55,820 bases of DNA from Gammaproteobacteria bacterium (GTDB lineage Bacteria; Pseudomonadota; Gammaproteobacteria; Ga0077536), in NCBI GenBank assembly GCA_030833185.1, contig JAURHQ010000005.1:1-55820 (forward strand), in the 5' to 3' direction. Below are positions 22,702 through 38,511 of this stretch, piece by piece. The translations under genes were made by a program, and so were the position numbers. The notes below the pieces were generated by a model. It did no database searches, was not told the origin of the DNA, and saw nothing but the letters and a program-made list of their open reading frames with translations. How positions within the stretch are numbered: the first letter of the stretch is position 1; each line of letters begins with the position of its first letter.

Positions 22702-25137
22702 TTAAGCCATCTTCGCCGGCACAGCCTCATCGGCCATCGTGAACAGCGCCGGGTCGACGCCTTCGCCCACCAGCAGATCGCGCCGCGCGGCGAATCGCGG
22801 CTTCACCAGCCACACGATCAGCGGCAGCACCACCAGCGACAGCACCATGTTGATGGCCATGATGACGATCAACAGCAGCCCCATGTCGGCGACAAACTTC
22901 AGGCCCGACATGAAATACCACGGCGCGATCCCCAGCCCCATGATAGTGGCCGTAAACAGGATGGCCTTACCGGTCGTGCGCAGCGCGCGCACGATGGCGA
23001 GCGCCCAGTCGCCATCGGCGCTGTGGTATTCCTCGCAAATACGCGACAACAGATAAATGCCGTAATCGATGCCAACGCCAAGCCCGATGGCCGCCACGAT
23101 CAGCGAGTTCACATCCAGCCCCACGCCCAGCAGGTGCATGGCGGCGTAAAGCACTTCATTGGCTAGATTCACGGGTACCAGCAGGATGAGCCCCGCCACC
23201 AGCGAGCGATAGGCCACGCTGCAGGTAATGAGGATGAAGAAGTTCAGCACCAGCACGACCACCCAGTGGTAACGCTCGACCACGTGATTCACCGCCTGTT
23301 GCAGGGGAATCGTGCCGGTGGCTAGCCGGATGGTGAAGCGCTCGTGGTCAGCGCCCACCTGCTCAACTGCCGCGCGGGCGGCTGCCAGCGCCTTGTCGAC
23401 GGTGTCCTGCTTGTTGTCGCGATACCAGAGCGAGACGGTGCCATCCAGCCAGGTCTCATTGACCACATGACCAAAGTTCTTGGCGCTGGTCCCCATGGTC
23501 ACCGCGAACGAAGCGGCGCTAGAGGCCTGGTCGTTGGGGTCGAGGAACATCCACTTGGGACTGCCCCCATTGAACAGACGGTTGCCCTCGCTGACGTAAT
23601 CCGCGAACGACAGCGTCGCGCGCGGCGGGTCTTCGCCAGACTCCATGATGCGCTGTAGCGCCCGCATGGTTTCCTGCATGTCGGACTTTTGGACCATCAG
23701 TTCGAGCGTCTTCCGTTCCTTCGACTCCAACACGATTTCCAGCGTGTTTACCCCAGGGAAATGCGCATTGATCTGGCGCACGGCGGTGTTGAATTCGGAG
23801 TCGTGCCAGAAGAGACCCGAGCCCTCCACCGGATTGCCGATTCGGATCTGGCCGGCGGTGTAGATGGCGAGCACGCTGAATACCAGCACCACGGCCGAGG
23901 TGAGGCGCGCGGTGCGGCCTACCGACAGGCTGGCCACCGCCCCCAGTGTGGCCTGTAGCCGCCGGTGAAAGCCCGACACCTTGCCGCGCCCGGTCAGACG
24001 CTCCACGTTGCGGGGCGGAGGCAAAGTTGCAAGCAACAGTGAAATCAGCACGACCCCGGTCGGGATCAGCCACACGGCCCACATGCCGCAAAAGATGGCG
24101 TGTCGCACCATGGCCGGAATGGGCGCCGCGACGACGATAAAAATGCCGAGGATGTCGGTGATAATGCCGAGGATGCTGGGCGCCATCATCACGCCCATGG
24201 TGATTTCGGCGGCTTTCACCCGGTCACCGACCTGCGCGTAAACCTCGTAGAAGCGCTCCGTGAACTGCACGCAGTGCGAAAATGAGCGCGCGGTCAGCAG
24301 CAAGGGCACGACCATGAGCAGCGGCTCGATCGAGATATCCAGCCACCCCACCAGACCAAACGCCCAAATGCCGGCCGTCGCGCTGGTAATAATGGGCGTG
24401 ATGACGCCAACCACATTGCGCATGTAGAGGATCAGCGCGCCGATCAAGGCGCCAAGCGTCACGGTGAAGATCATCACCATCTGCCATTCGTACTGATACA
24501 CCCAGCCGATAAGCACCGGCTGGCCGGCGAGATAGACGTCGTGATGCTCATCGCGAGCGGCCTTGACCAGCCGCTGCAAGTGCTCGAAGGCCACGCCGTA
24601 ATCCAGCCGATGTTCGATGAAGGTTGCGGTAATCAGCGTCGCGGTATCGTCGCGCGATACCAGAAACACCCGGGCGTTCGGCGCCTTGTCCAGCAAGTTG
24701 CGGAACTTGCTGATTTCTTCTTCATCCCGCGGCGCGTGATCGGTCATCAAAGGCCGCATATCGATGCCGTTGGCGGTCGATTCGCTGTAGCGCGCCTTGC
24801 TGCTCGCCAGCGAGAGAATCATGTCGTGATCGACACCCGGCACCAGATCGATATCGCGCGTGAACTGCCAGATTTTGGCCAGCGTGTCGGCGTGAAAAAG
24901 ATCGCCGTCCTTACGCTTGATCATCACCGCGACCGTCAGCGGGTTACCAAATCCCGGATGGTCCTTGTAGACCTGCACAAACGGGTCATCCGTGGGTAGC
25001 AGGTCAGAAAAAATGGTCTGCAACTGGACCTTGGGGAGTCCTGCGGCAAAGAACGCGGTAATGGCGATGAAGAGCGCCCAGGCGGGCTTGCGGTTGGCCA
25101 GAACCCAGCGAGCAATCCGGTAACGGAGCGAGTACAT
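22702..25137 (-). CDS. MMPL/RND-family membrane transporter
   Basis: Two repeated TM blocks with periplasmic loops; GLGVGIDYGIYL, TTGKAILFTA; start ATG 25137. Confidence 0.88.
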   Translation of the reverse strand: MYSLRYRIARWVLANRKPAWALFIAITAFFAAGLPKVQLQTIFSDLLPTDDPFVQVYKDHPGFGNPLTVAVMIKRKDGDLFHADTLAKIWQFTRDIDLVPGVDHDMILSLASSKARYSESTANGIDMRPLMTDHAPRDEEEISKFRNLLDKAPNARVFLVSRDDTATLITATFIEHRLDYGVAFEHLQRLVKAARDEHHDVYLAGQPVLIGWVYQYEWQMVMIFTVTLGALIGALILYMRNVVGVITPIITSATAGIWAFGLVGWLDISIEPLLMVVPLLLTARSFSHCVQFTERFYEVYAQVGDRVKAAEITMGVMMAPSILGIITDILGIFIVVAAPIPAMVRHAIFCGMWAVWLIPTGVVLISLLLATLPPPRNVERLTGRGKVSGFHRRLQATLGAVASLSVGRTARLTSAVVLVFSVLAIYTAGQIRIGNPVEGSGLFWHDSEFNTAVRQINAHFPGVNTLEIVLESKERKTLELMVQKSDMQETMRALQRIMESGEDPPRATLSFADYVSEGNRLFNGGSPKWMFLDPNDQASSAASFAVTMGTSAKNFGHVVNETWLDGTVSLWYRDNKQDTVDKALAAARAAVEQVGADHERFTIRLATGTIPLQQAVNHVVERYHWVVVLVLNFFILITCSVAYRSLVAGLILLVPVNLANEVLYAAMHLLGVGLDVNSLIVAAIGLGVGIDYGIYLLSRICEEYHSADGDWALAIVRALRTTGKAILFTATIMGLGIAPWYFMSGLKFVADMGLLLIVIMAINMVLSLVVLPLIVWLVKPRFAARRDLLVGEGVDPALFTMADEAVPAKMA

Positions 25138-25374
25138 CGTCGTTAAACCTGTCTGATAAAAAGATGATTTGAGGGCAGCCACCAACCTGGTGATGCTGCG
25201 CAAAGTACCCCATTCGGGGGCATTCCGGACAGACGTCCCGGGCAGCGACGCGCCTGTCCAAGCAAGACCATGGGCCGTAAACTGCGGGCCTGTCTTTTAC
25301 GGCCCCACGGCCCCGCCGGTTTCACCTTTGATCACTTGCCATCGCTATCCCGCGTCGCGCCTCGGTGCGCCGAT

Positions 25375-26316
25375 ATGAAAAATTCCTTCGCCGCGGGCCT
25401 ACTGGCCGCGTTTCTGGCGGTCGCCCTGTGGGGCGCCCAATTACCCATCGCCAAGGACAGCTTCGCGCACGTCGACCCGTTCAGCTCCACCGCTTTGCGC
25501 TATCTCTTCGCCTTGCTGGTGATAGTGCCCGCGCTGATCTGGCAGGAAGGACGCGGGGCGCTCCGTTACGGGCGGCAATGGAAAACGGCCTGTCTGCTCG
25601 GATTCATCGGCATGGCGGCCTCGCCCTGCCTGGTCTTTCTCGGCATGTCAATGTCGCGCGCCGAATATGCGGTGGTGATCGTCGCGCTGCAGCCTTCGAT
25701 GGCGGCCATTTTGCACTGGATCCTGCAATCCCGACGCCCCTCCGCCTTCACCTTGGCCTGCATTGCGATGGCGCTGGCCGGGGTGGTGCTGGTGGTGACC
25801 AAGGGCGAGTTGGCTTTCCATGAGAGCGCCCGCGAACTGCTCGGTAGTTTTTGCGTCCTGCTGGGCGCACTCGCCTGGGTGATCTACACGATGGGAACCG
25901 GCAAGCTGGCGGGCTGGTCAATATGGCGCGTCACCACGCTGACCATGTTGCCTGGCGGGGTGGCCAACATGCTGCTCGCGGCCGGCCTGATTGCCACCGG
26001 GATCGTGCCGCTACCCACCGCTGAGGCCCTGTGGGCCATCCGCTGGCCGCTGGCCTATCTCAGCTTTGCCGGCGTGTTGGTCTCCATGCTGGCGTGGAAC
26101 TTCGGCAACCAGCGCATCGGCCCTTTGAACGCAACGCTGTTCATCAACTTCATGCCGGTCATGACCTTCGGCTTTCGGAGCCTGCAGGGCTATCAGTTCT
26201 CGCCGATCGAACTGCTCGGCGCGGGATTGGTTGTCGCCGCACTGGTAGCTAACAACGTGTATCTACGCGTGGTTTTTCTGGCGGCGCAGCGCCGCGCCGC
26301 CGTGGCTGCGGGCTAG
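25375..26316 (+). CDS. DMT/EamA-family transporter
   Basis: About 10 hydrophobic helices in two EamA repeats; likely start ATG 25375. Confidence 0.87.
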   Translation: MKNSFAAGLLAAFLAVALWGAQLPIAKDSFAHVDPFSSTALRYLFALLVIVPALIWQEGRGALRYGRQWKTACLLGFIGMAASPCLVFLGMSMSRAEYAVVIVALQPSMAAILHWILQSRRPSAFTLACIAMALAGVVLVVTKGELAFHESARELLGSFCVLLGALAWVIYTMGTGKLAGWSIWRVTTLTMLPGGVANMLLAAGLIATGIVPLPTAEALWAIRWPLAYLSFAGVLVSMLAWNFGNQRIGPLNATLFINFMPVMTFGFRSLQGYQFSPIELLGAGLVVAALVANNVYLRVVFLAAQRRAAVAAG

Positions 26317-26321
26317 ACGAA

Positions 26322-27275
26322 TCAGGGCACGTCTACGACATCGCCCGCCGGCCCTTCATGATGCGGATGGAGATCATGCGCCGGTTTAACCGGGAGCCCT
26401 GCGACCGGCACCGTTCGGCGCAGGAAATCGATCACGGCGCGTCCGAACACATCGTTGCGATCACCGGCCACCATGTGGCCGGCCTCGGTAATATTGACGT
26501 ACTCGCTATGCCTGCAGAGTTCAAGAAACGCAGCCGCGCCTTCTTCGCTGAGCACGTCTGACAGCCCCCCACGCACCAGCAGGGTCGGCAGGGCAAGCGC
26601 GCTGGCGCAGGCTTCGAGTCGGATCAGACGTTTATCCATTTCCCGGCGCAGGGTCATGAAGCGCGGGTCCCAGTGCCAGCGGTATTTGCCGTCCGCCGTG
26701 AGTCGTAAATTCTTCGCCAGACCGGCTAAATCCTTGGGTGGCTTGCGGTGTGGCTGATAGGCCCCAATCGCCTGCGCCACTTCCTCCAGCGAGTTAAAGC
26801 CCTCGGGTCGCTGGTCCATGAAGGCCTGAATTTTCTGCACGCCTTCCGGCTCGATACGGGGTGCGATGTCAACCAGCACCAGCGCAGTGGCATCGACGCG
26901 ATCTTCACCCACCGCGACCAGACTGGTGCCGCCGCCCATGGACGCCCCGACCAGCACCGGCCGGCGTCCGCCGAGCGCTGCGATCACGCAGCGCAGGTCC
27001 TCCACCATGATGTCCTGCCCATACACGCCATCGGGTGCCCAGTCAGAATCACCGTGGCCACGGGCGTCGAAACTCACCGCGTGATAGCCGGCCGCACCCA
27101 GCTGCTCACCCACATTCTTCCACGCATGACGGGTCTGCCCACCCCCATGCTGGAGCAAGACGAGCGGCCCTTGCGGGTCACCCCAACTGTCACCGGCGAT
27201 GCTCACGCCCTGCGCCCCCGACCAACGATGCATGGGGATAGGCGTACCTGGAAGTCTTTCGCCGGCGTTGCTCAT
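26322..27275 (-). CDS. Alpha/beta hydrolase (BpoB/Rv1123c-like)
   Basis: HGGGQ, RGHGDS, nucleophile elbow GASMGG, WHWDP, AGHMVAGD. Confidence 0.88.
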   Translation of the reverse strand: MSNAGERLPGTPIPMHRWSGAQGVSIAGDSWGDPQGPLVLLQHGGGQTRHAWKNVGEQLGAAGYHAVSFDARGHGDSDWAPDGVYGQDIMVEDLRCVIAALGGRRPVLVGASMGGGTSLVAVGEDRVDATALVLVDIAPRIEPEGVQKIQAFMDQRPEGFNSLEEVAQAIGAYQPHRKPPKDLAGLAKNLRLTADGKYRWHWDPRFMTLRREMDKRLIRLEACASALALPTLLVRGGLSDVLSEEGAAAFLELCRHSEYVNITEAGHMVAGDRNDVFGRAVIDFLRRTVPVAGLPVKPAHDLHPHHEGPAGDVVDVP

Positions 27276-27366
27276 GGGGCTTCGATCCTGTTCAGTGCAG
27301 GCTGCATTGTCGGGGCATGGGGAATCGCGTCAAGCGCTGGTCTTTCGCGACTCACCATCAGGGGCT

Positions 27367-27471
27367 TGGACAGGCGCGATTGACTAGCTCATTGAACACG
27401 GCGTAGCGACCGTCATTTTTACCAACCCGTCCAAAGGCTTTTTTACCGCCGACGCGCTCGCCCAGCTGGGC
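27367..27471 (+). pseudogene. Remnant of an enoyl-CoA hydratase N-terminus
   Basis: Frame reads AID*LIEHGVATVIFTNPSKGFFTADALAQL with in-frame TAG at 27385-27387; similarity ends after about 30 codons. Confidence 0.5.
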
Positions 27472-27526
27472 GGAAGGATGCATTGGCACGCGGGCGGTGG
27501 GCACCCGCGCGAGCAAGGCCGAGGCT

Positions 27527-28042
27527 TCAGGCTTTCAGCATTTCAGCCAGCGCAAGGCGCGTGGATTCAAAGGCAATTCGGCCCGGGTCCACCGCCGCAG
27601 GCGCCAGCCAATCGAGCGCGGCCGCTTCGTCGTTAGGCTGGAATTCGGTGGCATCCGCCAGCGTGCAGCCGAAGAACACGTCGACCGTGCTGTAGCGTAC
27701 GCCGTGAAATACATACCGATTGGGAATGGAAAAAAGATAGCGCGGCGCGAGGAGCTTGAATCCGGTTTCCTCAAAGGTTTCGCGCATCACGGCGGCTTCC
27801 AGCGACTCATCGCGCTCGACAAAGCCACCCGGCAAATCAAGCAAGCCGGCGCCGGGCTCGCGGGCGCGCGTAATCCACGCGATTTTGCCGGCGCGCTCGA
27901 TAACGGCCGACACCGCAACCGCCGTGTTATGGAAATACGTATGACCACAACGCGAGCAGCCGTAGAGCTTGTTGTCTACGCTTTCCAACGCATCTACCCC
28001 GCACTGGGGGCAGAAATACCGGCGGTTGCTTGCCGATGTCAT
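27527..28042 (-). CDS. NUDIX hydrolase with N-terminal zinc ribbon
   Basis: CPQC...CSRC; Nudix box PGGFVERDESLEAAVMRETFEETG. Confidence 0.9.
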   Translation of the reverse strand: MTSASNRRYFCPQCGVDALESVDNKLYGCSRCGHTYFHNTAVAVSAVIERAGKIAWITRAREPGAGLLDLPGGFVERDESLEAAVMRETFEETGFKLLAPRYLFSIPNRYVFHGVRYSTVDVFFGCTLADATEFQPNDEAAALDWLAPAAVDPGRIAFESTRLALAEMLKA

Positions 28043-28053
28043 CGCCTTGATGC

Positions 28054-28836
28054 TCAGGCGCGAGCCGTTGAGCCGCCGTCAACGGTGAGTACGGTACCGG
28101 TGCAATAAGAGGCTTCGTCCGAGGCCAGAAACAGGCAGGCATAGGCCACTTCTTCCGGCGTGGCAGGACGCCCCATCGGCGAAATGAGTTTCGGGTTCTC
28201 GGGCGAAAACAGCATGGGGGTCACGCTCTCCACCATCTGGGTTTGCACAAAGCCCGGTGCCACCACGTTGCAGCGAATATGGTCGTCGACGTAGGCGACC
28301 GACATGGAACGCGTGAGATTGATGATGGCGCCTTTGGTGGCCGTGTAGGTGTGGGCATCCGGCGCACCGCCCAGCCCGAAAATACTGGCAACGTTGACGA
28401 TCGATCCCTTGCCCTGCTGCTTCATCTGGCGGATCACGAGGCGCGACACGTAGAACACGCTGTCGAGATTGAGGGCCATCACCTCACGCCATTTGTCGAT
28501 CGGGGTGCTGTGCACCGGATCCATCGAGCCTGCGCTGGTCTCGCGCAGGTTGTAACCCACACCGGCCGCGTTCAGCAGGATGTCAATGCGGCCGTAGGTC
28601 TCAACGCAGCGGTTGACGGCGGCTTCGACCGGGTCGGGTTGCGACAGGTCGGCGCTGAACACGCTGCCTTTGCCGCCGGCCGCAACGGCCTGACGCAGTG
28701 ATTCATCCAGATTGGCCTGCGTGCGCGAGACCCCGAAAACGGTGGCGCCTTCTTTCGCAAACATCACCATGCAAGCCCGGCCAATGCCGGTGCCCGCACC
28801 GGTTACAAAGGCTATTTTTCCATCCAGACGTCCCAT
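28054..28836 (-). CDS. Short-chain dehydrogenase/reductase
   Basis: TGAGTGIG, catalytic YTATK, PGF. Confidence 0.93.
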   Translation of the reverse strand: MGRLDGKIAFVTGAGTGIGRACMVMFAKEGATVFGVSRTQANLDESLRQAVAAGGKGSVFSADLSQPDPVEAAVNRCVETYGRIDILLNAAGVGYNLRETSAGSMDPVHSTPIDKWREVMALNLDSVFYVSRLVIRQMKQQGKGSIVNVASIFGLGGAPDAHTYTATKGAIINLTRSMSVAYVDDHIRCNVVAPGFVQTQMVESVTPMLFSPENPKLISPMGRPATPEEVAYACLFLASDEASYCTGTVLTVDGGSTARA

Positions 28837-28885
28837 ACCTGTTCCCCTTCTCGGCTCGTTTACCCTGAAACGAGGCTGTTCGTGA

Positions 28886-29491
28886 TTATTCTTCGCGCTG
28901 GCGTCCCATCAGACGCAGCAGGTCCTCATGTAACTCAAACCAGACGGTGTGATAGCTGTCGCTACGCGCATCGCTGACTGCCGCAGTCTCGCCATTTTCC
29001 GCCTGATCGAGGGCGGCCAGCAGCTTTTCCTGATACACCTTGAGCCGCGGCGCCCCGCCGACCAATGCCTTCAACACCGGCTCGAAGCGTTCATGCAAAT
29101 CGCCGAGGCGGTCGACGATGCGCTGGTCGTAGTCGCGGTCGCTGTGGTCGTTGGGTACGCGTTTACCGCCTAGTTCAAGCGTTTGCCAATCGGTGATGAG
29201 TTGCTTGAGCTCGACATTGATGCGCTCGAAGCGTTCGTAGGCGGCAACAAATGCAGCGTTGGCGCGCAACCCATCACAGAATCGCGAGTATTCGCTGGCC
29301 AGGATCAACTGGCCGGCTGGTGACAGCAGATAACGCCCGTTGGCTTCCAGCACCCGCCCACCGGCGACCGCCGAGGCCAGTAGCTCGGCGGTGCGTGCGA
29401 GCGGGACGCTTGCGATCGCAGCGATGTCTTCGGCAGCGCCGTGCTTGCGAATCGCGATAGCGTGCATGACCAGATGGAGATCGGTATTCAT
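28886..29491 (-). CDS. Conserved hypothetical with wHTH-like N-terminus (Rv1126c-like)
   Basis: TDWQ, PNDHSDRDYD, DSYHTVWFELHE match my recollection of mycobacterial Rv1126c. Confidence 0.75.
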   Translation of the reverse strand: MNTDLHLVMHAIAIRKHGAAEDIAAIASVPLARTAELLASAVAGGRVLEANGRYLLSPAGQLILASEYSRFCDGLRANAAFVAAYERFERINVELKQLITDWQTLELGGKRVPNDHSDRDYDQRIVDRLGDLHERFEPVLKALVGGAPRLKVYQEKLLAALDQAENGETAAVSDARSDSYHTVWFELHEDLLRLMGRQREE

Positions 29492-29515
29492 CGGTATAGC
29501 TCCGTCAGGGGTGCG

Positions 29516-31066
29516 TCAGGCCTTGCCCCGACGTGCTTCGATATCGTCACGACGCAAGGCGGCACCGGCATCCTGCAGGGTGCGCGAGTGCCGCTGTTCG
29601 AGCTTGAAAAGCTCATCAGCGCGCGGCGTATGCGCGTGATACTTCACCCAGTCCTGGCAGAGGTAGCGGTAAGCGGGCTGGCAGATTTCAGGAACGAACT
29701 CACGACTACGCTGCATGAACTCCGCCAGCGACAGCACGCCCTGCGTGGTGCGGTAGCGGTCGTTCTTGCGCGGCAAGTTACTGACGCCTGAGCGTAGCGG
29801 CCCCACCGACGGCGTGTAATCGCCGTCATCCAGAATGGAATACGGAATGTAAGAAAGCGATCGGGTGGGAGCATCCGTGTGCTGCATCATGGTGTAGTCG
29901 TGCATCCGCTGGCTTGGCGTGCTGATGTAGCCCACCAGTTCGCCGAGAAACAAATTGCCGTATTCGTCGTTCAGCAAGGGCCGGAAGCGTTCGGCGCGTT
30001 CGTCGATCATCATCCAGTCTTCCATCTCATAACAGCCGGCAATCATGGCGAACTCTTTGATGACGGCGTAGTAGGTCAAGGCGCCAGCATCAAGTTGCTG
30101 GTCGCGGGTCCAGCCCGCCATCTCGCGCCACAGCTTGGCGGTCGCTACCTTGATCCGGTCGGTGAGGTCGAGAAAGGTGGCCGTAAGTTCTTCGACGCTG
30201 CCCATCCCGACCGGGAGGTGTCCTTCCGACAGGGTATCTGCCGTATAGAGGCCGACGCCCACCATATGCTCGGCGCGCATCTCGGGCTCGGATTCAAACG
30301 AGCCCCAGTCGTCGAGCAGGTTGATGTGACAGCCCTCGAGGATCATCGTCACGGTCAGGTTGTTATAGGGGATTTCACCCCCGACGCCATCGAGCCAGGG
30401 CACGCCGGATTCGGACAGTTCAAGGAAGTCCCGCACCAGCATCTCGCGTTTGTCCGAAACTCGATACGGCCCGTGGTTATGCAGCGTCAGGCGGCTCTCA
30501 CAGGACACCAGAAACCCGTACTGCGCGGCGGCGGCCAAAAACGACTGAGCAGCACGGTGCAGCGGATCGCCGTCACGACATTCAAAGGCGTCGGCATGGA
30601 AAACCTGCAAGCGCTGCTCAGGCAGCACCTGCGCGCGATGACCGGCCTGGCGATTGATCAGATTGCCGTTGTTACGATGCCAGGACAGCTGAAAGCGCTT
30701 CCAGAAATCCATGGTGTAGATGAGGTCAAGCACGCCGTCGCTGGGTTTAATAACGCCCCAGTTAATGAGCATCTCGCGCCCCAGCAGGTAGAAGCAGGGC
30801 ATGCACCAGGCCACGATTTTGATGCCTTGATTCCGCGCCCGGTCGCCGATTTCCTCTGCCGACATGTGCTGCTCAATTTTGCGGAGCAGCGCCGGGTAGC
30901 GATACCAACAGTTGAGATACGAGAAAAGGATGTAGGCAGAGACCGGGAAAATCTTTGATTCCTGAACGGTGCGCGTGGCGCAAAGCCAGTAGGTTTCATC
31001 CGCGTTTTGCTGGATGAGGTTGTTGGTTTCCAGTAGCTGGGCGTAGGTCAGGGTCGGCTGAGACAT
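29516..31066 (-). CDS. Hypothetical 516-aa soluble protein
   Basis: Long ORF with coding-like composition, tightly packed in an operon; no motif I recognise. Confidence 0.85.
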   Translation of the reverse strand: MSQPTLTYAQLLETNNLIQQNADETYWLCATRTVQESKIFPVSAYILFSYLNCWYRYPALLRKIEQHMSAEEIGDRARNQGIKIVAWCMPCFYLLGREMLINWGVIKPSDGVLDLIYTMDFWKRFQLSWHRNNGNLINRQAGHRAQVLPEQRLQVFHADAFECRDGDPLHRAAQSFLAAAAQYGFLVSCESRLTLHNHGPYRVSDKREMLVRDFLELSESGVPWLDGVGGEIPYNNLTVTMILEGCHINLLDDWGSFESEPEMRAEHMVGVGLYTADTLSEGHLPVGMGSVEELTATFLDLTDRIKVATAKLWREMAGWTRDQQLDAGALTYYAVIKEFAMIAGCYEMEDWMMIDERAERFRPLLNDEYGNLFLGELVGYISTPSQRMHDYTMMQHTDAPTRSLSYIPYSILDDGDYTPSVGPLRSGVSNLPRKNDRYRTTQGVLSLAEFMQRSREFVPEICQPAYRYLCQDWVKYHAHTPRADELFKLEQRHSRTLQDAGAALRRDDIEARRGKA

Positions 31067-31087
31067 GCGAGTGCTTCCTTGGAATCT

Positions 31088-31825
31088 TCAGAGCGGCGGC
31101 AGCCGGAACACGCGCGCCGAGACGTCGGCGCCAGTCTGGTAGTCATCGGCGGTCTTGGCGCGGGCGGTGACTTCGAGTTCCAGCCGGTCGCCGTCCTTGA
31201 TCCCGGAAAGTCTGGCGTTCATCAAACAGGGAATCCCGTATTCCCGCGTCAGAATCGCCAAGTGAGAGCGGGTAGTGCCGCCGGCACACAGCACACCGGC
31301 GAACTTCTCCAGCACCGGCGCGGTCAGCGTTCCGCCGGAGTCCTCCACAATAGCGATGGTGTTAGCCGGCACGCCGTGAGTGAGGTATTCCAGCACCTTG
31401 TCGCTGGTGCGGACGTAGCGCGCAATCCCAAGCAGATTGGCTTTGCGCGACACCACATTGTCGCCGACGCCGCGCAGTTCGCGACCTTCGGCATCGGGCG
31501 CGGCAGTGGGCGCAGCCGGGTGCTCAAAGGAGAAGTTTTCCAACTGCAGTCCCGAATCCCGATAGGCCTCCGGACGTTCGGCCGCCGACGACATCGCGGA
31601 AGGCTCAAAGCGGTAGCCGTTTGCCAGCAACTGGGCCTCGATCTTCGCAATGTCTTCCTTGGTAATGCTGTCGTACGCAGGGCCCGCCACGAACGCCTGC
31701 CAGCTGCCGTTGAATTCTGCAAAGCGGCGGCGAACCAGATCTTTCATTGCCGCGTTGTAGGCTTCGACGATCGCGAAAGTCGACTGCCAAGCGTGTTTGT
31801 CGTGGTCGGTATAAAGCGTGCTCAT
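31088..31825 (-). CDS. Stand-alone PEP-utilising enzyme mobile (phospho-His swivel) domain protein
   Basis: GGTTRSHLAILTREYGIPC matches the GGxTSHAAIxARExGIP phospho-His motif; unknown N-terminal ~110 aa. Confidence 0.85.
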   Translation of the reverse strand: MSTLYTDHDKHAWQSTFAIVEAYNAAMKDLVRRRFAEFNGSWQAFVAGPAYDSITKEDIAKIEAQLLANGYRFEPSAMSSAAERPEAYRDSGLQLENFSFEHPAAPTAAPDAEGRELRGVGDNVVSRKANLLGIARYVRTSDKVLEYLTHGVPANTIAIVEDSGGTLTAPVLEKFAGVLCAGGTTRSHLAILTREYGIPCLMNARLSGIKDGDRLELEVTARAKTADDYQTGADVSARVFRLPPL

Positions 31826-31847
31826 GGGTACTTTGCCTCTCTCTCCT

Positions 31848-32858
31848 TCAAGCCGTATAGCGATCGCGAAGCGCCGCGCGGGCAGCTGGCGTCAAACCCA
31901 GCGCCTGCTGCAGGAAATCAGCGTCGCTGGCGTAGTGCTGGTCGATTTCTGCGAGCACGACCTCAAGGTAGGACTCGCGCGTCACCAGCAGGGGTTCCAT
32001 CAAGGCGACCACATCACGGCCCGGCCGCGCCTTGACCGCGTATTTTTCCAGCGCGCGGGGCAGTTCGGTTTGTGCCGGAAAGTAACGTCGCGACAGGGTG
32101 AAATCGTACAAGATCGTCTCACGCGGAACGCCTAGCGCCAGCAGCAGCAGGGCCGCCCCGACGCCGGTGCGCTCCTTGCCCGCTGAACAGTTCATCAACA
32201 CGCTGCCGGCCGCAGCTTGTTGGAGCACTGCGAACAGACGTGCGTAATGCGGCGCCGATTCCCCAATCAGCGAGCGCATCAGTTCGTGCATGGCATCGAC
32301 CACGACCGCGGGATCGTCGGTCTGTTCAAACAGGCGATGGAAAAAGAAGCGGTCTTTCAGACCCGGCGGAATGCCCAGCGTTTCGAGCACCGGGGCGCAG
32401 GCAATGGTCGCATTTTCGGTGGCCCGCTCTTCCGCCATGCGGAAGTCACAGACGGTACGAATCTCCAGCGCGTCAAGGCGGTCCTGGTCGCCGGCGGTCA
32501 GCTTCGATAAATGCCCGGACCGAAAGAGCTTGCCCCAGCGCACGCGGCGTCCGTCGTCCGTTCGGTAACCGCCCAAATCCCTGAAGTTAACCCCGCCTGC
32601 CAGCGGGACCTGGCGTTCGGCCACCCACATCGGCGAGCCAGCGGTCGGCTCAAGGCAAAAGAAAGGGCGAAACCAGTCGGTCGGCAGGTCGACTTCGGCC
32701 CAGCCGCCGACAGCCTCAAGCGGTGAGAGATCACCCATCGCGTCTGGCGAGCGCGCCGCCCGGATACGGACTGGCTCGATTAGACAGTCGGCGTCCCAGG
32801 CAACGCGCCATCGACCTGCGCCAATCTGCTCTACCGAAATCTGTGTTATTGGGTCCAT
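31848..32858 (-). CDS. Cys-dependent protein-tyrosine/lipid phosphatase (IphP/MptpB-like)
   Basis: NFRDLGGY, LFRSG, DFR, P-loop NCSAGKERTG (CX5R). Confidence 0.9.
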   Translation of the reverse strand: MDPITQISVEQIGAGRWRVAWDADCLIEPVRIRAARSPDAMGDLSPLEAVGGWAEVDLPTDWFRPFFCLEPTAGSPMWVAERQVPLAGGVNFRDLGGYRTDDGRRVRWGKLFRSGHLSKLTAGDQDRLDALEIRTVCDFRMAEERATENATIACAPVLETLGIPPGLKDRFFFHRLFEQTDDPAVVVDAMHELMRSLIGESAPHYARLFAVLQQAAAGSVLMNCSAGKERTGVGAALLLLALGVPRETILYDFTLSRRYFPAQTELPRALEKYAVKARPGRDVVALMEPLLVTRESYLEVVLAEIDQHYASDADFLQQALGLTPAARAALRDRYTA

Positions 32859-33004
32859 CACAAGCTCCGCGAGTCCCCGCCCCGTTGGCGGCCGGGCGCA
32901 TACGGTGGCGTATTTGTGGCGCGGACGCTAGACGTAAGACCCGCTTTGGAGACGTCGATTGCAGGTTTCGGCGATGACGGTTCGGCACTACACTGCGGGC
33001 GACC

Positions 33005-33826
33005 ATGAACACCCCTGCGCCGGCTTCCCAACCCATCGTTCGCATTCGCGATCTGCATTTCCGACGGGGTGCGCGCGCGATTTTCAACGGCGTGAACCTG
33101 GAAATCCCGCGGGGCAAGGTCACCGCCATTCTGGGCCCCAGCGGCACCGGCAAAACGACCCTCCTGCGTCTGATTGGGGCCCAAATCGCGCCCACCAGCG
33201 GTACGGTCGAAGTCGACGGGGTGAACGTGCAGTCGCTGGCGGTCAAGCCGCTTTATGAGCTCCGGAAACGCATGGGCATGCTGTTTCAGAGCGGTGCCCT
33301 GCTGACTGACCTGACCGTCTTTGAAAACGTGGCGTTTCCGCTCCGCGAACATACCGACCTGCCGGCCTCGCTTTTGCGCAGTCTGGTGTTGATGAAGCTG
33401 GAAATGGTGGGCTTGCGCGGGGCGCGCGACCTCTATCCCCGGGAACTATCCGGCGGGATGGCGCGCCGGGCAGCGCTGGCGCGTGCGATCGCACTTGATC
33501 CATCGATGATTCTCTACGATGAGCCGTTTTCCGGGCAGGACCCGATCTCGATGGGCATCCTGGTCCGCCTCATCCGCGAGCTGAACGACGCGCTGGGCCT
33601 GACCAGCGTGCTCGTCTCCCACGACGTCGCGGAAACCAGTTCAATCGCGGACTACCTGTTCATTCTTGCCGGCGCGACGATCGTCGGAGCCGGCACACCG
33701 GCGGAGTTGCGCGAGTCGGATTCGCCGATCATCCGCCAGTTCATGGGTGGCCTGCCGGACGGCCCGGTGCCCTTCCACTTCCCGGCACCGCCCTTGCTCG
33801 ACGACCTGCTGGACGCCGGCCCGTGA
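33005..33826 (+). CDS. mlaF: Mla ABC transporter ATP-binding subunit
   Basis: [26 protein letters not shown]; operon context. Confidence 0.95.
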
Positions 33827-34602
33827 TCGAGTTGCTGGCCAAGCTCGGACGGGCAAGTCTCGGCGTCTTCGAACGCCTCGGACGCGGCCACCTGTTTCTG
33901 CTGGCGGTGCTCGGGCGCCTGCCAGGGCTAGCCCTGCGACCGCGACTGCTGTTGCAGCAAATGTGGTCGGTCGGCGTGCAATCGCTGCTGATTATTGTGG
34001 TTTCCGGCAGCTTTGTGGGGATGGTGCTCGGCCTGCAGGGCTACAACACGCTGGTGACCTTCGGCGCCGAAGAATCTTTGGGCGTGGTGGTCGCCAAGTC
34101 GCTGCTGCGCGAGCTCGGCCCGGTTATCGCGGCCCTCCTGTTCGCCGGTCGCGCGGGTTCCGCGCTCACCGCTGAGATCGGCTTCATGAAAGCGACCGAG
34201 CAACTGAGCGCGATGGAAATGATGGCTGTCGACCCGCTGGGCCGGGTGGTCGCGCCGCGCTTCGTGGCGGGCCTGCTGTCGATGCCACTGCTGGCTGCCA
34301 TCTTCACCGCCATCGGCGTGCTGGGCGGTTACTTCTGCGGCGTCGGCCTGCTTGGTGTAGACGAGGGTGCGTTCTGGTCGCAAATGCAGGCCAAGGTCAC
34401 GCTGGTGCAGGACGTGGTAAACGGCGTGGTGATCAAGAGTCTCGCTTTTGGTCTGGTGGTGAGCTGGATCGCCGTCTTCGAGGGCTACGACGCAGTGCCG
34501 ACCTCAGAGGGCGTCAGCGCGGCGACAACGCGCACGGTGGTACATTCATCGCTCGCCATCCTCGGACTCGACTTTGTGCTCACCGGTTTGATGTTTAACT
34601 GA
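33823..34602 (+). CDS. mlaE: Mla permease
   Basis: [29 protein letters not shown]. Confidence 0.95.
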
Positions 34603-34609
34603 GGACGCC

Positions 34610-35089
34610 ATGAAAGACCCTCGCCTGATTGAAATTTCCGTCGGCGCATTTGTTGCGCTGGGGCTGGCCGCCCTGCTGATGCTGGCCATGAAAGTGGCCA
34701 ATCTGGCCGAGTTTTCTGCCCCTCAGGGTTACGAAGTCCGCGCCTATTTCGACAACATCGGCGGCCTGCAGGTACGTTCGCCGGTGAAAATGGGCGGCGT
34801 CGTGGTTGGACGAGTCACCGCAATCAGCTACGACTCCGAGCGCTATCAGGCCAAGGTGACGCTCCGCATCGAACGGGGTTATGACCACATCCCGAACGAC
34901 ACCGCCGCCAACATCTACACCGCAGGGCTGCTGGGCGAACAGTACGTGGGACTCGAAGCCGGCGGCGAAGAAAATTACCTGAGGGAGAACAGCGAAATCA
35001 CCATTACGCAATCGGCGGTGGTGCTTGAAAAGGCCATGCAGGAGTTTCTTTACAACAAGACCGCCAAATCGAGCGGGCCGAAATCGTGA
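34610..35089 (+). CDS. mlaD: MCE-domain lipid asymmetry protein
   Basis: FDNIGGL, GVVVGRV, GLLGEQY. Confidence 0.95.
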   Translation: MKDPRLIEISVGAFVALGLAALLMLAMKVANLAEFSAPQGYEVRAYFDNIGGLQVRSPVKMGGVVVGRVTAISYDSERYQAKVTLRIERGYDHIPNDTAANIYTAGLLGEQYVGLEAGGEENYLRENSEITITQSAVVLEKAMQEFLYNKTAKSSGPKS

Positions 35090-35703
35090 GGCTCTGGCTG
35101 CTGGCAGCCGCACTGTTTGGCGTGCTGGGGGGTGAGCCTGCCGCCGCTGAAGCGCAATCGCCGGCACAACTGCTGGTCGAGACCACCAGCACGCAGGTGC
35201 TCACCGAGCTCCGGGCCGAAAGCGCCGCCATTTCCAACAACCCCGCCCTGCTCGATACGATCGCGCAGAAAGCTGTGCTGCCTCATTTTGACTTCGAGCG
35301 CATGTCGCAGCGCGTGCTCGGACAGCATTGGCGCAAGGCGACTCCCGAGCAGCGCGGGCGCTTCATGGCCGAATTCACCACCCTGCTGGTCCGCACTTAT
35401 GCCACCGCCGTTTTTGAATATCGGGAATCGGAAGTGCGGTTCATGCCGGCGCGCGAGCTAGGTGACAAAATTCAGCGCATTCGAAGTCTGGTCGACCGTC
35501 GCGACGGGCGCGCGCCCCTGCAGGTCGACTATGACGTCTTCGAGCGTGCGGATGGCTGGAAGGTGATGGATGTGGCGATCAACGGCATCAGTCTGGTGGT
35601 GAGTTATCGCAGCGGGTTTAACACCGACGTGGCTAAACTCGGCATGGATGGACTGATCGACCAGATTGCCCAACACAACGCGGCCAGAGCGGCCCTTCAG
35701 TAG
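35086..35703 (+). CDS. mlaC: Periplasmic phospholipid-binding protein
   Basis: Signal peptide, PHFDF, WKVMDV..GISLV..YR. Confidence 0.92.
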   Translation: MRLWLLAAALFGVLGGEPAAAEAQSPAQLLVETTSTQVLTELRAESAAISNNPALLDTIAQKAVLPHFDFERMSQRVLGQHWRKATPEQRGRFMAEFTTLLVRTYATAVFEYRESEVRFMPARELGDKIQRIRSLVDRRDGRAPLQVDYDVFERADGWKVMDVAINGISLVVSYRSGFNTDVAKLGMDGLIDQIAQHNAARAALQ

Positions 35704-35706
35704 CGT

Positions 35707-36039
35707 TTGCGCTTGGCCACGCCCTCGCTCATCGCGGTATTGCCCCGCCCGGACGGCGGTCTTGCGCTGGAAGGCGCGCTGTCTTTTTCGACCGTCACCG
35801 CCGCGCTGGCCGCGCTTCAGCCGCATTTGACCGGTGGTGCGCGCTATCTGGACTTGTCCGGCGTAGACCACGCGGACAGCGCCGGACTCGCCTTGCTGGT
35901 GGAGTGCGCGAAAACCGCTCGCCAACGCGGGTACACGCTTCGCTTTGAAAAACTGCCGGTGCAACTCGCCGCGCTTGCTGCCGCCTGCGGGCTGACGCGA
36001 TTGCTAATCGCGGACCAAGAGGCCTCGCCTACCGGCTAG
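35707..36039 (+). CDS. mlaB: STAS-domain protein
   Basis: DLSGV..ADSAGLALL; last gene of the mla operon. Confidence 0.85.
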   Translation: MRLATPSLIAVLPRPDGGLALEGALSFSTVTAALAALQPHLTGGARYLDLSGVDHADSAGLALLVECAKTARQRGYTLRFEKLPVQLAALAAACGLTRLLIADQEASPTG

Positions 36040-38504
36040 TGGTGAAAACCACCGAGCCTGCGACGTAAATCGCGAATCGCCACCGGATCGGTCAACGCCG
36101 CAGCCTGAAGCCGACGGTCGAAACGAGCGGCCAATTCCTCCGGCTTGCGCGCCACCGAGGCGCGGTAGCGGGCTAGAATCATGGCATCCGACAGTTCTGA
36201 AGCCCCCGGATGCTGCGCCAGTAAAGCGAGATGAAGGCTGCCGGCGGGCAGGTCGTGGGTAACGCGTGCCAGCCCACTGCCGGCGAGCAAGGCTTCGCTG
36301 GCCGGCGGCTCGTTAAGCAGCGGCAACGGGGAAGCCTCTTCGGGAATGATGAACAAGCCGCGCTCGCGCGCCTTCAGTCCTACCGCCAAACGTGCCCCCA
36401 GCCAGGAAACTGGCGCGGCAATCAGCATGCCGAGCAGCGCCGGCATCATCCAGGCGAGCAGCGCGGGGTATACCGTCCAGGCCGCCACGCCCAAGGTGAC
36501 GCCTGCCACCATGTGCGCGCGGTGCCGATGCCAGCATTCGGCGAACGGCATCCCACGGTCGTCGCGCGTCTGGGTTTTCCAGCCGCTATCCCGTCCTACC
36601 AGCACGTCAAAAACGAACTGGCTTTGGAGCAGCATCTGCACGGGTGCGATCAGCGCTGAAAAAAGCGTTTCGGCCATTACGCTTATCAGGGCGCGGCGGC
36701 GCCCCCCGAAGCCTGCGACGGCATCCGGGTTTACAGCCACCGCGATCCAACCAAAGAACTTGGGCGCGAGGAGCACCAGCATGGTGACGCCAAACAGCCG
36801 CGCCGCGAGTTCGGGGTTGATGACTTGCCAGACCGGGTAAGGGGTGCGATCCGGAAAAAAATACACCGGCAACTGCAGGCTCCCCTGAAGCGCCGCAAAG
36901 ATGCCGACCAACAAGAACAGAAACCACAGGGGAGAGGCCAGATAGGACATGATTCCGGAGAGCAGGTGAAAACGGCTCAGGGGATGCAGACCGGCGGTGC
37001 CTAAAAGCGCCATGTGCTGCAGATTGCCCTGACACCAGCGACGGTCACGCATCGCGTGATCCAGCAGCGAGGGTGGCGATTCCTCGTAACTGCCGCCAAG
37101 TTCGGTCAGTAGATGGGAGCGCCAACCGGCGCGCCGCATTAGCGCCGCCTCGACGAAATCGTGGCTGAGAATATGCCCGCCGAACGGGGCCTTACCGGGC
37201 AGCACCGGCATCCCCGCGCAGGATGCAAAGGCGGCCACGCGAATAATGGCGTTATGTCCCCAGTAGTTGCTGTCCCCGCCGTACCAGAACCCGAAGCCGC
37301 GCGCGAGCACCGGACCGTACATCGCCGCCGCGAACTGCTGGGCACGCGCAAACAGCGTATTGCGGTTTACCAGTCTGGGGACTGTTTGCAGGATGCCCAC
37401 ATCGGGATTGGTGGCCATCTGCCGGGCCAGCGTTAGCACCGTCTCGGCGCTCATTACGCTGTCGGCATCCAGCACAAGCATGTTTTCGTACCGTGCGCCC
37501 CAGCGTTCACAGAAGTCCGCAATATTGCCGGCCTTGCGGCCGGTATTCTCAAAACGTCGGCGATAAAACAGACGCCCGGTCGCCCCCAGGCGCCGCCGGC
37601 ACGCATCCCAGGCGAGTTCTTCGGCGACCCAGCAGTCGGGGTCGGTGGTGTCGCTCAGAATGAAAAACTCGAAGTGCTCCAGCGCGCCAGCGGCCGCCAG
37701 ACCCAGATAGATCTTCTCAATGGCCGCGAGCACCCGCAGCGGGTCTTCGTTATAGGTCGGCATCAGCACCGCCGTTCGCTCGGTCAAGGGCGCAGAAGCG
37801 GGCAACCCGGGCTTTAGCCCCGGCAAGGGGGATGGGCGCAATCCGCTCCACAGGCCTGCCAATGCACTGCAGAAGGTCAGCGCAATCCACACGAAATTGG
37901 CCGCAAACAACACCATCAGCAGCACTTCGATCGCGCTGATCCCGCCCGGGGAGAAGACTCGCCCCATTTCCAGCGTGGCCAACGCCGTGCCGAATGCGGT
38001 GCCGCCCAGCACTGCAAAGCGCCGGCGCAACAAGACGTCGGGCGTGGTTGATTCGACCGCTGCGGCCGGGGCGGTCCCCAACGACTGCGCGGGCATGGCA
38101 AGCCGCGCCTCCGGCGGGGTCGCGACCGGCAGGGCGTCCAAAAAAGCGGTGAGCAGCGCCGGTGGCGGATCGGCAGCCAGCAAGGCGTCGGGCCAGTCGC
38201 GTCCCGGCTGGATGGCCAGCAGGGCCGCGCGCCGGGTGTAGACATCGGGCGTCGGCCCGGACCGGCATTGCTTGACGACGTTCAGGGTCCAGCGATCGAG
38301 CCGGCGACGCAGGTGCCGAAGCGCGAGTTCGGGCCCAGCGCCGGCTGGCAGTCGCTCACTGAGATGCCGGATCAAGGCTTTGCCGGCCGCATCGTCCGTA
38401 TAGCCCAGACTGGCAAGGTAGTGCTGAAGAATGCGTTCGACGGCTGCCCGCAGGGGCGGTGCCGTAACCCGGCTTACCGCTTCCTCGGTGGTCAGGACCG
38501 CCAT
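36036..38504 (-). CDS. mdoH: Glucans biosynthesis glucosyltransferase OpgH/MdoH
   Basis: MPTYNED, RKAGNI, LDADS, YWGHNAIIR, SHDFVEAA, RDRRWCQGNLQH; likely start ATG 38504. Confidence 0.95.
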   Translation of the reverse strand: MAVLTTEEAVSRVTAPPLRAAVERILQHYLASLGYTDDAAGKALIRHLSERLPAGAGPELALRHLRRRLDRWTLNVVKQCRSGPTPDVYTRRAALLAIQPGRDWPDALLAADPPPALLTAFLDALPVATPPEARLAMPAQSLGTAPAAAVESTTPDVLLRRRFAVLGGTAFGTALATLEMGRVFSPGGISAIEVLLMVLFAANFVWIALTFCSALAGLWSGLRPSPLPGLKPGLPASAPLTERTAVLMPTYNEDPLRVLAAIEKIYLGLAAAGALEHFEFFILSDTTDPDCWVAEELAWDACRRRLGATGRLFYRRRFENTGRKAGNIADFCERWGARYENMLVLDADSVMSAETVLTLARQMATNPDVGILQTVPRLVNRNTLFARAQQFAAAMYGPVLARGFGFWYGGDSNYWGHNAIIRVAAFASCAGMPVLPGKAPFGGHILSHDFVEAALMRRAGWRSHLLTELGGSYEESPPSLLDHAMRDRRWCQGNLQHMALLGTAGLHPLSRFHLLSGIMSYLASPLWFLFLLVGIFAALQGSLQLPVYFFPDRTPYPVWQVINPELAARLFGVTMLVLLAPKFFGWIAVAVNPDAVAGFGGRRRALISVMAETLFSALIAPVQMLLQSQFVFDVLVGRDSGWKTQTRDDRGMPFAECWHRHRAHMVAGVTLGVAAWTVYPALLAWMMPALLGMLIAAPVSWLGARLAVGLKARERGLFIIPEEASPLPLLNEPPASEALLAGSGLARVTHDLPAGSLHLALLAQHPGASELSDAMILARYRASVARKPEELAARFDRRLQAAALTDPVAIRDLRRRLGGFHH

Positions 38505-38511
38505 CGGACGG

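Follow-up and report, generated by a model that had tools for sequence, protein, structure and literature searches.

The stretch analysed here, positions 1-55,820 of contig JAURHQ010000005.1 of a gammaproteobacterium of the lineage Ga0077536 (hereafter the window; G+C about 62%), carries on its minus strand, at positions 27527-32861, six co-directional open reading frames (ORFs) separated by only 22, 21, 24, 49 and 11 bp. From the 5′ end of the operon, they code for a 337-aa Y_phosphatase3 enzyme, tyrosine-phosphatase-like with a CX5R motif (31848-32861; PF13350, E = 4.6e-60); a 245-aa free-standing phosphohistidine swivel protein with a PF00391 (PEP-utilizers) domain, designated SW (31088-31825); a 516-aa protein, p516 (29516-31066), and a 201-aa winged-helix plus helical protein, p201 (28886-29491), neither of which matches anything in Pfam or NCBIfam at E ≤ 0.01; a 260-aa short-chain dehydrogenase/reductase (SDR) oxidoreductase (28054-28836; PF13561/PF00106, E = 5.5e-58); and a 171-aa protein combining a Zn ribbon with a NUDIX hydrolase (27527-28042; PF00293, E = 7.4e-18). 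An earlier account made from the letters alone (the sequence-only reading) had seen here a candidate split dikinase-like system, and both the six co-directional genes with 11-49-bp gaps and the histidine codon which it placed at 31262-31264, and which encodes His188 of SW in the motif GGTTRSH, are indeed present. Our domain scan also agrees with its statement that the operon has neither an ATP-grasp domain nor a phosphoenolpyruvate (PEP)-binding barrel: the ATP-grasp domain PF01326 was found nowhere in the operon or the window, no operon protein matches the PEP/pyruvate TIM barrel PF02896 at E ≤ 0.01, and PPDK_N and PEP-utilizers_C are absent from the six operon genes and from 31 other window ORFs scanned, so that no complete dikinase is encoded there.

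SW consists of an N-terminal anchoring domain (approximately residues 1-90), a conserved linker and the swivel domain, which matches PF00391 over residues 156-215 with 33.0 bits against a cut-off of 23.1. His188 and the surrounding CAGGTxRSH are invariant in 41/41 aligned SW homologues; this histidine lies in a motif of the G-G-x-T-x-H type, matches the position of the histidine in PEP synthase 8a8e when the two are aligned, and is the putative phosphate carrier residue. Other similarities were confined to the swivel part, both in a sequence search of PDB chains (E 0.19-0.29) and in comparison with PRK08296-type models (19.5 bits, cut-off 578). None of SW, p516 and p201 corresponds to the subunits of the phenylphosphate synthase type (PpsAB, HpeHI, AcvAB and CreHI), i.e., a His-bearing alpha subunit of about 70 kDa and an ATP-binding beta subunit of about 40 kDa, both related to portions of PEP synthase.

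While SW can be assigned to a family, p516 cannot. Its relatives number 970 proteins at E ≤ 0.001 among 8000 candidates scored, forming 421 representatives upon clustering at 50% identity, and those among the 120 matches listed are 60-91% identical to it, have no Pfam domains and are all named “hypothetical protein”. A relative is encoded in 468 of 474 candidate stretches drawn from 185,579 species genomes, with one genome per species. In an alignment of 43 sequences with identities as low as 60%, 121 of its 516 positions never vary, a degree of constraint which looks typical of enzymes. The fold search proposed in the sequence-only reading was performed on an alignment-based AlphaFold2 model (pLDDT 89.0, pTM 0.91), and it returned neither a solved relative nor a characterised enzyme. 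Foldseek yielded no match at E ≤ 0.001 among 350,542 PDB chains, the best (E = 0.068, TM-score 0.08) being to TolC-like helices, and VIA-align against 48,161 representative chains gave a best Z of 5.4, a single chain reaching Z ≥ 5, with only 57-107 residues aligned in the top rows, all within residues 160-318. A sequence search of PDB chains gave nothing at E ≤ 1, and the ESM Atlas gave no usable match. Thus, p516 is a member of no known family and its predicted structure has no recognisable solved relative, a statement that holds for the model as a whole, since its domains were not searched separately.

Natural fusions connect p516 with both of its neighbours. Proteins of 722-728 aa carry p201 at the C-terminus of p516, and end in SYHTVWFELHEDLLR..GRQREE, as does p201 itself. 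Among the 22 distant p516 relatives scanned, three have an N-terminal PEP-utilizers domain, 18 are domain-free and one has a sub-threshold domain of unknown function. One of the three, WP_007239118.1 of Gordonia otitidis, annotated as “PEP-utilizing enzyme”, is a natural SW+p516-like fusion: it is 37% identical to SW residues 129-223, including GTTRSHLAI, and 27% identical to p516 residues 32-385 over 362 aa (E = 7e-29). On plasmid pROB02 of Rhodococcus opacus B4, a single frame of 793 codons joins all three parts, namely the swivel (E = 1e-12), the p516 core (E = 3e-18) and p201 (E = 3e-20), and is followed downstream by a homologue of the window phosphatase (30% identity, E = 1.5e-15). In addition, plasmid pRB98 of Rhodococcus oxybenzonivorans S2-17 contains, upstream of its main operon discussed below (positions 1-4203 of the record), two more “PEP-utilizing enzyme” genes, each preceding a hypothetical protein of about 380-400 aa with 26-28% identity to the p516 core; these pairs indicate that the short (about 375-aa) distant relatives of p516 are paired with swivel proteins as well.

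The complex prediction suggested in the sequence-only reading, which asked whether the histidine docks into a pocket, placed His188 at an interface between SW and p516. The ipSAE scores of the three runs were 0.86, 0.87 and 0.88, and those of all three controls were 0.00; of 80 solved complexes, 58 attain the mark applied, as do 2 of 110 mismatched pairs, a calibration that is rough here because our own alignments were used. Contacts agreed by at least 79% between runs, and partner pLDDT was at least 87. On the SW side, the predicted interface comprises residues 4-88, the DDSGGTLTAP loop (161-170) and R186-S187-H188, and on the p516 side residues 35-43, 101-111, 174-192, 256-265, 309-324, 356-389 and 416-425. 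Invariant residues are modestly enriched in it on both sides (p516, 27 vs 18.5 expected, p = 0.013; SW, 27 vs 19, p = 0.01). The model supports, without showing it, a mode of binding in which SW sits on p516 with His188 docked, and together with the fusions it argues that SW, p516 and p201 may form one protein machine.

We compared loci using one genome per species and keeping the best 80 of the 468 p516 relatives. A tree of 85 p516 sequences, built without matches below 1400 nt and without one row that contained a stop, divides into the window's clade 1 (SH-aLRT 99), clade 2 (85) and clade 3 (100). Clade 1 comprises 54 loci and clade 2 comprises 26, and gene counts were made only over loci with enough flanking sequence. 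In clade 1, SW accompanies p516 in 51/51 loci, p201 in 46/47, the phosphatase in 49/50, where its gene is directly upstream of SW, and an SDR gene within 4 kb downstream in 39/40, an arrangement that is far beyond chance; the core genes of the sequence-only reading do therefore co-occur elsewhere, the phosphatase, SW, the 516-aa protein, p201 and SDR being retained across the 54 orthologous loci. The phosphatase scores 204 bits to PF13350 (cut-off 22.2), its P-loop NCSAGKERTG (C225-x5-R231) is invariant in 50/50 homologues, and in Rhodococcus its homologues follow fused or complete systems. NUDIX, though a clear family member (65.3 bits to PF00293, cut-off 21.1), occurs in only 6/44 orthologous loci and, together with the alpha/beta hydrolase and EamA genes on its far side, is confined to the nearest relatives of the window. 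Judging from this distribution, it is a lineage-specific addition and not a core component, and since it occurs in so few loci, the conserved unit shrinks from six genes to five. Of the three enzymes which the sequence-only reading had assigned to the system, the phosphatase and SDR are thus retained and NUDIX is not. A PycB-type carboxyltransferase gene lies between p201 and SDR in 6/42 clade 1 loci, with truncated pyruvate, phosphate dikinase (PPDK) in 0/37 and biotin carboxylase in 0/30. Several lake metagenome-assembled genomes in this comparison (L002, L004, L021, L037, L055, L060 and L067) are titled “Klebsiella pneumoniae”, and L022 and L059 “Hydrogenophaga intermedia”; these labels look wrong, because the genomes group with unnamed Gammaproteobacteria in the p516 tree.

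The composition of clade 2 loci points to what the window operon is missing. Next to a divergent GntR/FCD regulator gene, they contain SW, p516, an AMP-binding CoA ligase, p201, a protein of 580-620 aa composed of PPDK_N and PEP-utilizers domains, BCCP (biotin carboxyl carrier protein), biotin carboxylase (BC), an HMGL-like/PYC_OADA carboxyltransferase (CT), thiolase and sometimes SDR. SW was found in 26/26 loci, the CoA ligase in 15/20, PPDK in 15/15, BC in 14/14 and the phosphatase in 0/22; p201 is present in 18/19, adjoining the truncated PPDK. The orthologue from locus L062, which has 619 aa and only the two domains, scores 724 bits to NF004531 (PRK05878; cut-off 456) over positions 7-531 of 534. 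By its domains, the clade 2 partner is a truncated PPDK of the type of mycobacterial VadK (PRK05878), with an ATP-grasp part and a His domain of its own and without the C-terminal barrel. In the deeper clade 3 (L097-L102), SW, p516 and p201 stand between BCCP-BC and two genes each for enoyl-CoA hydratase and PycB-type carboxyltransferase in 6/6 loci examined (G048:C8, G013:C20, G028:C1, G033:C16, G014:C105 and G018:C225; p516 identity 46-49%), and in at least some of them p516 and p201 share one open frame of 741-972 aa. This context suggests that the substrate differs or that the carrier is charged in another way.

The search for a truncated PPDK or ATP-grasp partner elsewhere in the genome, which the sequence-only reading had also proposed, did find one. 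Contig C332 of the same genome carries a GntR gene followed by SW (57%), p516 (64%), an AMP-binding CoA ligase, p201 (58%) and a truncated PPDK (C332:21519-22919) which scores 637.7 bits to NF004531/PRK05878 (cut-off 456) even though the gene is cut by the contig end. Contig C221 carries the end of a BCCP gene, BC, CT (87%), thiolase and the start of an SDR gene, so that in the window genome the parts of the pathway are split over contigs C554, C332 and C221. We then scored co-occurrence in 81 genomes of the window's order: a PRK05878 match over the cut-off is present in 59 of the 70 genomes that bear p516 and in none of the 11 that do not, counts which are not independent and do not amount to a statistical test, because the 81 genomes represent one family. 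In one of the 59 (G014), the match is an 885-aa frame which looks like a full-length PPDK. A single p516 match was found in 24 genomes, and we examined ten of those with clade 1 only. In 10/10, PPDK heads an operon of the order PPDK-BCCP-BC-CT-thiolase-SDR (BC in 9/10), with SW, p516 and p201 absent beside it; as these ten genomes carry no other triad, the clade 1 cassette is the only one available to their PPDK operon. Since the window-type operon lacks ATP-grasp, carboxylase, CoA ligase and thiolase, it would be required to act in trans. Of the two roles which the sequence-only reading had allowed for p516 as a new module, acceptor or donor, its co-occurrence with the VadK-type ATP-grasp protein makes acceptor much likelier and donor less so; most likely, p516 would be the substrate-binding module.

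Plasmids from cultured bacteria show the same parts united. Of 22 plasmid records with a p201 relative, we looked at four. On pRB98 of R. oxybenzonivorans S2-17, which belongs to another phylum, all parts lie on one strand in one operon, in the order SW, p516, AMP-binding protein, p201, PPDK, BCCP, BC, CT, OB-fold protein, thiolase, “tyrosine-protein phosphatase” and SRPBCC. Identities to the reference proteins are 42% for SW, 47% for p516, 42% for p201 and 57% for the “pyruvate, phosphate dikinase”; the phosphatase is 34% identical to that of the window (E = 4.6e-16). Kinase, BCCP+BC+PycB-type CT, phosphatase, CoA ligase and cleavage enzyme, the gene set of the Hpe/Acv type described below, are therefore encoded together on this plasmid. 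Plasmid pSA1 of Novosphingobium resinovorum has the same parts in a different order. Judged from these gene neighbourhoods, the module belongs with biotin carboxylase, CoA ligase and thiolase, a link that goes beyond the sequence-only reading.

The place of p201 in this assembly can be approached through mycobacteria. Its AlphaFold2 model (pLDDT 96.1) combines a winged helix at the N-terminus with a helical domain; a sequence search of PDB chains gave nothing at E ≤ 1, Foldseek matched only the winged-helix part, weakly (E ≥ 0.02), to regulators and methyltransferases, and the nearest ESM Atlas clusters are 201-aa proteins of Actinomycetota. On plasmid pP7a of Mycobacterium avium, a 542-aa truncated PPDK (50% identical to the clade 2 protein) is directly followed by a 201-aa p201 homologue (35% identity, E = 5e-28), the gene order of Rv1127c-Rv1126c; Rv1127c presumably belongs to the NF004531/PRK05878 model. 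The name “Rv1126c-like”, which the sequence-only reading had given to p201, thereby receives indirect support, by way of the pP7a homologue and not by comparison with Rv1126c itself. Downstream of this pair, pP7a (10219-12620) also encodes a 503-aa “PEP-utilizing enzyme”, in which tblastn matched the swivel part only and p516 gave no match at E ≤ 0.001, and a 296-aa hypothetical protein. VadK (Rv1127c) autophosphorylates on His422 in an ATP- and Mg-dependent manner, and Rv1126c co-purifies with it, improves its solubility and is removed only by a 2 M NaCl wash (PMC13400623). It is likely that p201 would act as an adaptor, linking p516 to the ATP-grasp protein of the VadK type.

The same observations could be accommodated by a regulatory phosphorelay, in which p516 would be a ligand sensor and p201 the winged-helix, DNA-binding output; the VadK-type kinase would charge SW and the phosphatase, acting on protein, would reset it, so that the carboxylase pathway is controlled at the level of transcription or of enzyme activity and no metabolite is phosphorylated. 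The best, if weak, fold matches of the p201 winged helix are to GntR, IclR and MarR regulators, p201 homologues in plasmid records and Atlas clusters bear the annotations “MarR family” or “transcriptional regulator”, members of Y_phosphatase3 generally go under the name of protein phosphatases, and the published account describes VadK as a regulatory histidine kinase interacting with methylcitrate-cycle enzymes (PMC13400623). We nevertheless consider such a relay improbable: the p201 fold matches do not exceed a TM-score of 0.36, clade 2 clusters already have a divergent GntR/FCD regulator, p516 is conserved in the manner of an enzyme, and the triad is placed between enzyme genes of a catabolic operon, translationally close to them, while a genome can hold as many as three paralogous triads, all accompanied by carboxylase parts of their own.

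A precedent for a kinase, a biotin carboxylase and a phosphatase acting in series exists in the Hpe pathway of Rhodococcus rhodochrous GD02 (hpeHICBADEF) and the Acv pathway of Sphingobium SYK-6 (acvABCDEF). There, the phenylphosphate-synthase-type kinases HpeHI/AcvAB phosphorylate the phenol, HpeCBA/AcvCDE (BCCP, AccC-like BC and PycB-like CT) carboxylate only the phosphorylated ketone, and the HAD phosphatases HpeD/AcvF remove the phosphate before a CoA ligase and a cleavage enzyme act (PMC9618137; bioRxiv 10.1101/2022.04.28.489975). We lean towards the view, which we hold to be somewhat probable, that the window operon encodes the acceptor half of a dikinase which descends from PPDK and is divided among separate proteins, and which operates in such a phosphorylate-carboxylate-dephosphorylate route, with SW, p516 and p201 as one machine; the split dikinase-like system of the sequence-only reading is thereby largely borne out, including the new p516 module, and is narrowed to an acceptor half without NUDIX. 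SW would be anchored on p516 through its N-terminal domain, and the swivel domain would bring the phosphate on His188 into a p516 pocket, where a small molecule would be phosphorylated. The phosphate would come from ATP via the VadK-type truncated PPDK encoded elsewhere in the genome, with p201 as the likely adaptor. The compound so phosphorylated, for which a ketone that is phenolic or otherwise enolisable is the likeliest candidate, would then be carboxylated by BCCP, BC and the PycB-type carboxyltransferase, the tyrosine-phosphatase-like enzyme would take the phosphate tag off, CoA ligase and thiolase would cleave the resulting beta-keto acid, and SDR would interconvert alcohol and ketone. 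We infer each phosphotransfer, the substrate and the order of the steps from gene content, conservation, fusions, co-occurrence and the predicted fold and complex. A phenolic phosphate intermediate would fit, because the tyrosine-phosphatase fold by its nature hydrolyses aryl phosphates.

The phosphate may instead be placed on the enol oxygen of an aliphatic or aryl ketone, as PEP synthase does with pyruvate, and not on a phenolic hydroxyl; the enol phosphate would itself be carboxylated, and the phosphatase would only correct mis-phosphorylated or leftover intermediates. The donor protein descends from PPDK, an enol-phosphate maker, the carboxyltransferase is of the pyruvate carboxylase subunit B type, which acts on an enolate, and aromatic ring-cleavage genes were not seen beside the clusters examined. 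Genes of Hydantoinase_A/_B (Pfam), which we take to be the family of acetone and acetophenone carboxylases, adjoin the cassette in seven clade 1 loci (L030, L031, L036, L038, L039, L041 and L044), and weak matches to them (20-34% identity) lie beside the PPDK-carboxylase operon in 4/10 loci (L087, L090, L093 and L094). However, carboxylation of an enol phosphate would need no biotin enzyme, as PEP carboxylase demonstrates, and the constant partner of the cassette, in 49/50 loci, is an enzyme of the tyrosine-phosphatase type, built for aryl phosphates. The sole characterised precedents place the phosphate on a phenol and have the biotin enzyme carboxylate a methyl ketone (PMC9618137). Overall, phosphorylation of an enol oxygen appears unlikely to us.

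Several observations weigh against an acceptor half charged in trans and coupled to carboxylation. Besides the relatedness of the sampled genomes, 11/70 p516-bearing genomes have no PRK05878 match over the cut-off (G001, G017-G019, G021, G022, G024, G028, G058, G070 and G073); several of them are only 71-92% complete, and G021 and G022 have PRK05878 fragments at contig ends, but G024 (99% complete) and G073 (98%) are not obviously incomplete. ATP-grasp, carboxylase, and CoA ligase or thiolase are missing at clade 1 loci (0/37, 0/30 and 0/45, respectively), and the p516-like clusters of clade 3 have two carboxyltransferases and enoyl-CoA hydratases, with PPDK in 0/6 operons. The VadK-type protein already possesses a swivel His, which leaves the need for a second carrier, and for transfer from His to His, unexplained. 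The window phosphatase is a CX5R enzyme of the protein tyrosine phosphatase type (PF13350), which is not homologous to the NagD-like HAD (haloacid dehalogenase) enzymes HpeD and AcvF, and BC and CT are likened to HpeAB/AcvDE by gene set and architecture only. Finally, a high complex score says how confident the model is in itself and is not a measurement, and contigs from RNA libraries, described below, may contain DNA, so that they are no proof of transcription.

Alternatively, p516 might be the phosphoryl donor, binding PEP or another high-energy phosphate and charging His188 with no ATP-grasp protein involved, after which phosphorylated SW would hand the phosphate to another enzyme; the 11 genomes without a PRK05878 match and the absence of the ATP-grasp dikinase domain from all 37 clade 1 and all six clade 3 operons speak in its favour. 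Such a donor is nonetheless very unlikely in our opinion, given that the VadK-type protein tracks p516 among the 81 genomes as described, that the p516 cluster adjoins PPDK in every one of the 15 clade 2 loci with enough flank as well as in Rhodococcus and Novosphingobium, and that, carboxylase aside, no separate acceptor protein is conserved beside the triad.

An extension of the acceptor hypothesis, which we put forward only tentatively as one possibility, is that the VadK-type truncated PPDK, charged by ATP, plays the part of a general “enzyme I” in a phosphorelay of the cytoplasm and serves several interchangeable SW-p516-p201 triads, each for a different small molecule. If so, metabolite kinases would have an architecture resembling that of the phosphotransferase system, p516 would be a new catalytic fold, and mycobacterial VadK/Rv1126c would be the charging half of a small-molecule kinase, instead of or besides its protein-regulating role.

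The region between the operon and the divergent mlaF gene (32862-33004) is probably the promoter region, although no consensus promoter was found in it; a scan of positions 26000-33300 yielded one promoter vs 1.9 expected from shuffled sequence, and five terminators vs 6.7. A 164-aa ORF at 32858-33352 on the minus strand, which has no family match and overlaps mlaF on the opposite strand, was treated as spurious. Contigs from four river and freshwater metatranscriptome libraries, 95-99% identical to the window, bridge the operon junctions; their spans are 26289-29558 and 29788-32723 in X1, 28031-30869 and 31298-32898 in X2, and 27521-29602 and 30207-32879 in X3. In all four libraries the contigs break between 32810-32898 and 33001-33022, i.e., at the gap between the operon and mlaF. 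As RNA libraries can hold DNA and a multi-gene contig is not equivalent to a single transcript, this hints only weakly at expression of the operon as one unit in close relatives.

Beyond the gap lies a complete mlaFEDCB set (33005-36039, plus strand), divergent from the cassette, followed on the minus strand (36036-40233) by an opgH-like gene (GT2, 904 aa) and opgG (MdoG). On the other side, EamA and alpha/beta-hydrolase genes flank the operon, and a group of mutually adjacent genes for a luciferase-like monooxygenase, a cytochrome P450 and an 833-aa MMPL-family transporter (20326-25203) lies immediately upstream of both. Elsewhere, the window contains two adjoining cyanophycin-synthetase-like genes (7654-12513, plus strand), the first of which (744 aa) is limited to the N-terminal and ATP-grasp parts, while the second (859 aa) adds Mur-ligase domains; a hybrid histidine kinase of 1585 aa containing HAMP, GAF and at least five PAS domains, after which comes a response regulator whose output domain is of the HD type (HD_5) (13364-19314, minus strand); and a second NUDIX gene (178 aa; 45294-45830, plus strand), 17 kb from the first and beside a class-III aminotransferase gene.

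In the literature, we found no description of the triad or of a cluster of PPDK, biotin carboxylase and thiolase, and nothing on the pRB98 operon of R. oxybenzonivorans S2-17; supplementary lists that may hold such clusters (PMC9618137 Fig. S5; PMC12624787 Datasets S2 and S3) lay outside the scope of this comparison. PMC13101465, judged by its abstract, deals with other enzymes. A lead from anaerobic steroid degradation, which regarded 25-hydroxysteroid kinase and phosphosteroid lyase as dikinase-like, was dropped, as the kinase is presented as an unrelated enzyme with a sequential ternary-complex mechanism (PMC8449060).

Comparison with known systems shows where the module resembles them and where it departs from them. 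With PPDK, PEP synthase and the phenylphosphate synthase PpsABC it shares a PF00391 swivel His (GGxTxH), which in those enzymes shuttles phosphate between a nucleotide-binding ATP-grasp and an acceptor site, and with PpsABC also the division of phosphotransfer functions among several polypeptides; it differs in having neither a PF02896 barrel nor a PpsA-like large subunit, the proposed acceptor being p516, and in having two swivel domains, of which one belongs to the ATP-grasp protein and the other stands alone. Rifampin phosphotransferase and the prodigiosin ligase PigC are likewise PPDK-derived, with the pyruvate barrel swapped for another small-molecule-binding domain, and the weak NCBIfam matches of SW are to the swivel parts of enzymes of this type, but they are single polypeptides, and p516 did not match them in general PDB searches (Foldseek, E ≤ 0.001; VIA-align, Z ≤ 5.4), none of which was aimed at those entries. 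The VadK/Rv1126c pair is approached by the clade 2 donor protein, which fits NF004531/PRK05878, and by the p201 homologue trailing a truncated PPDK in M. avium; VadK in print, however, is a methylcitrate-cycle regulatory kinase without a small-molecule substrate or a p516 or SW partner, and p201 in the window adjoins p516, not PPDK. If our interpretation is correct, p516 would join the few domains that take phosphate from a swivel His as a new acceptor module, with a fold lacking a solved relative, and the widespread VadK-type truncated PPDKs would acquire a candidate, and testable, set of partners; cultured carriers in Rhodococcus and Novosphingobium make experiments feasible.

The closest overall resemblance is to the Hpe, Acv and Xcc (Aromatoleum aromaticum EbN1) systems, which share an ATP-driven kinase of the His-dikinase type, a three-part biotin carboxylase, a phosphatase and a CoA ligase, together with an enzyme that cleaves a C-C bond. 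In contrast to Hpe/Acv, the kinase here would be composed of VadK-type PPDK, SW, p516 and p201, and not of PpsA-like 71-kDa and PpsB-like 41-kDa subunits, p516 has neither a PPDK_N domain nor a known fold, and the window genome spreads the parts over two loci, with the triad duplicated. That unrelated protein families can occupy the kinase position of a phosphorylate-then-carboxylate pathway is evident from MarK, an aromatic kinase (UPF0261) found in Novosphingobium aromaticivorans, although MarK is a single-protein, directly ATP-dependent kinase with no phosphohistidine relay and no relationship to p516 (PMC12624787). The split system described here would then be the third, non-homologous type of kinase to serve the recently discovered phosphorylate-carboxylate-dephosphorylate route to inert ketones, a kind of pathway that draws attention for its bearing on how aromatics from lignin and aromatic pollutants are broken down.

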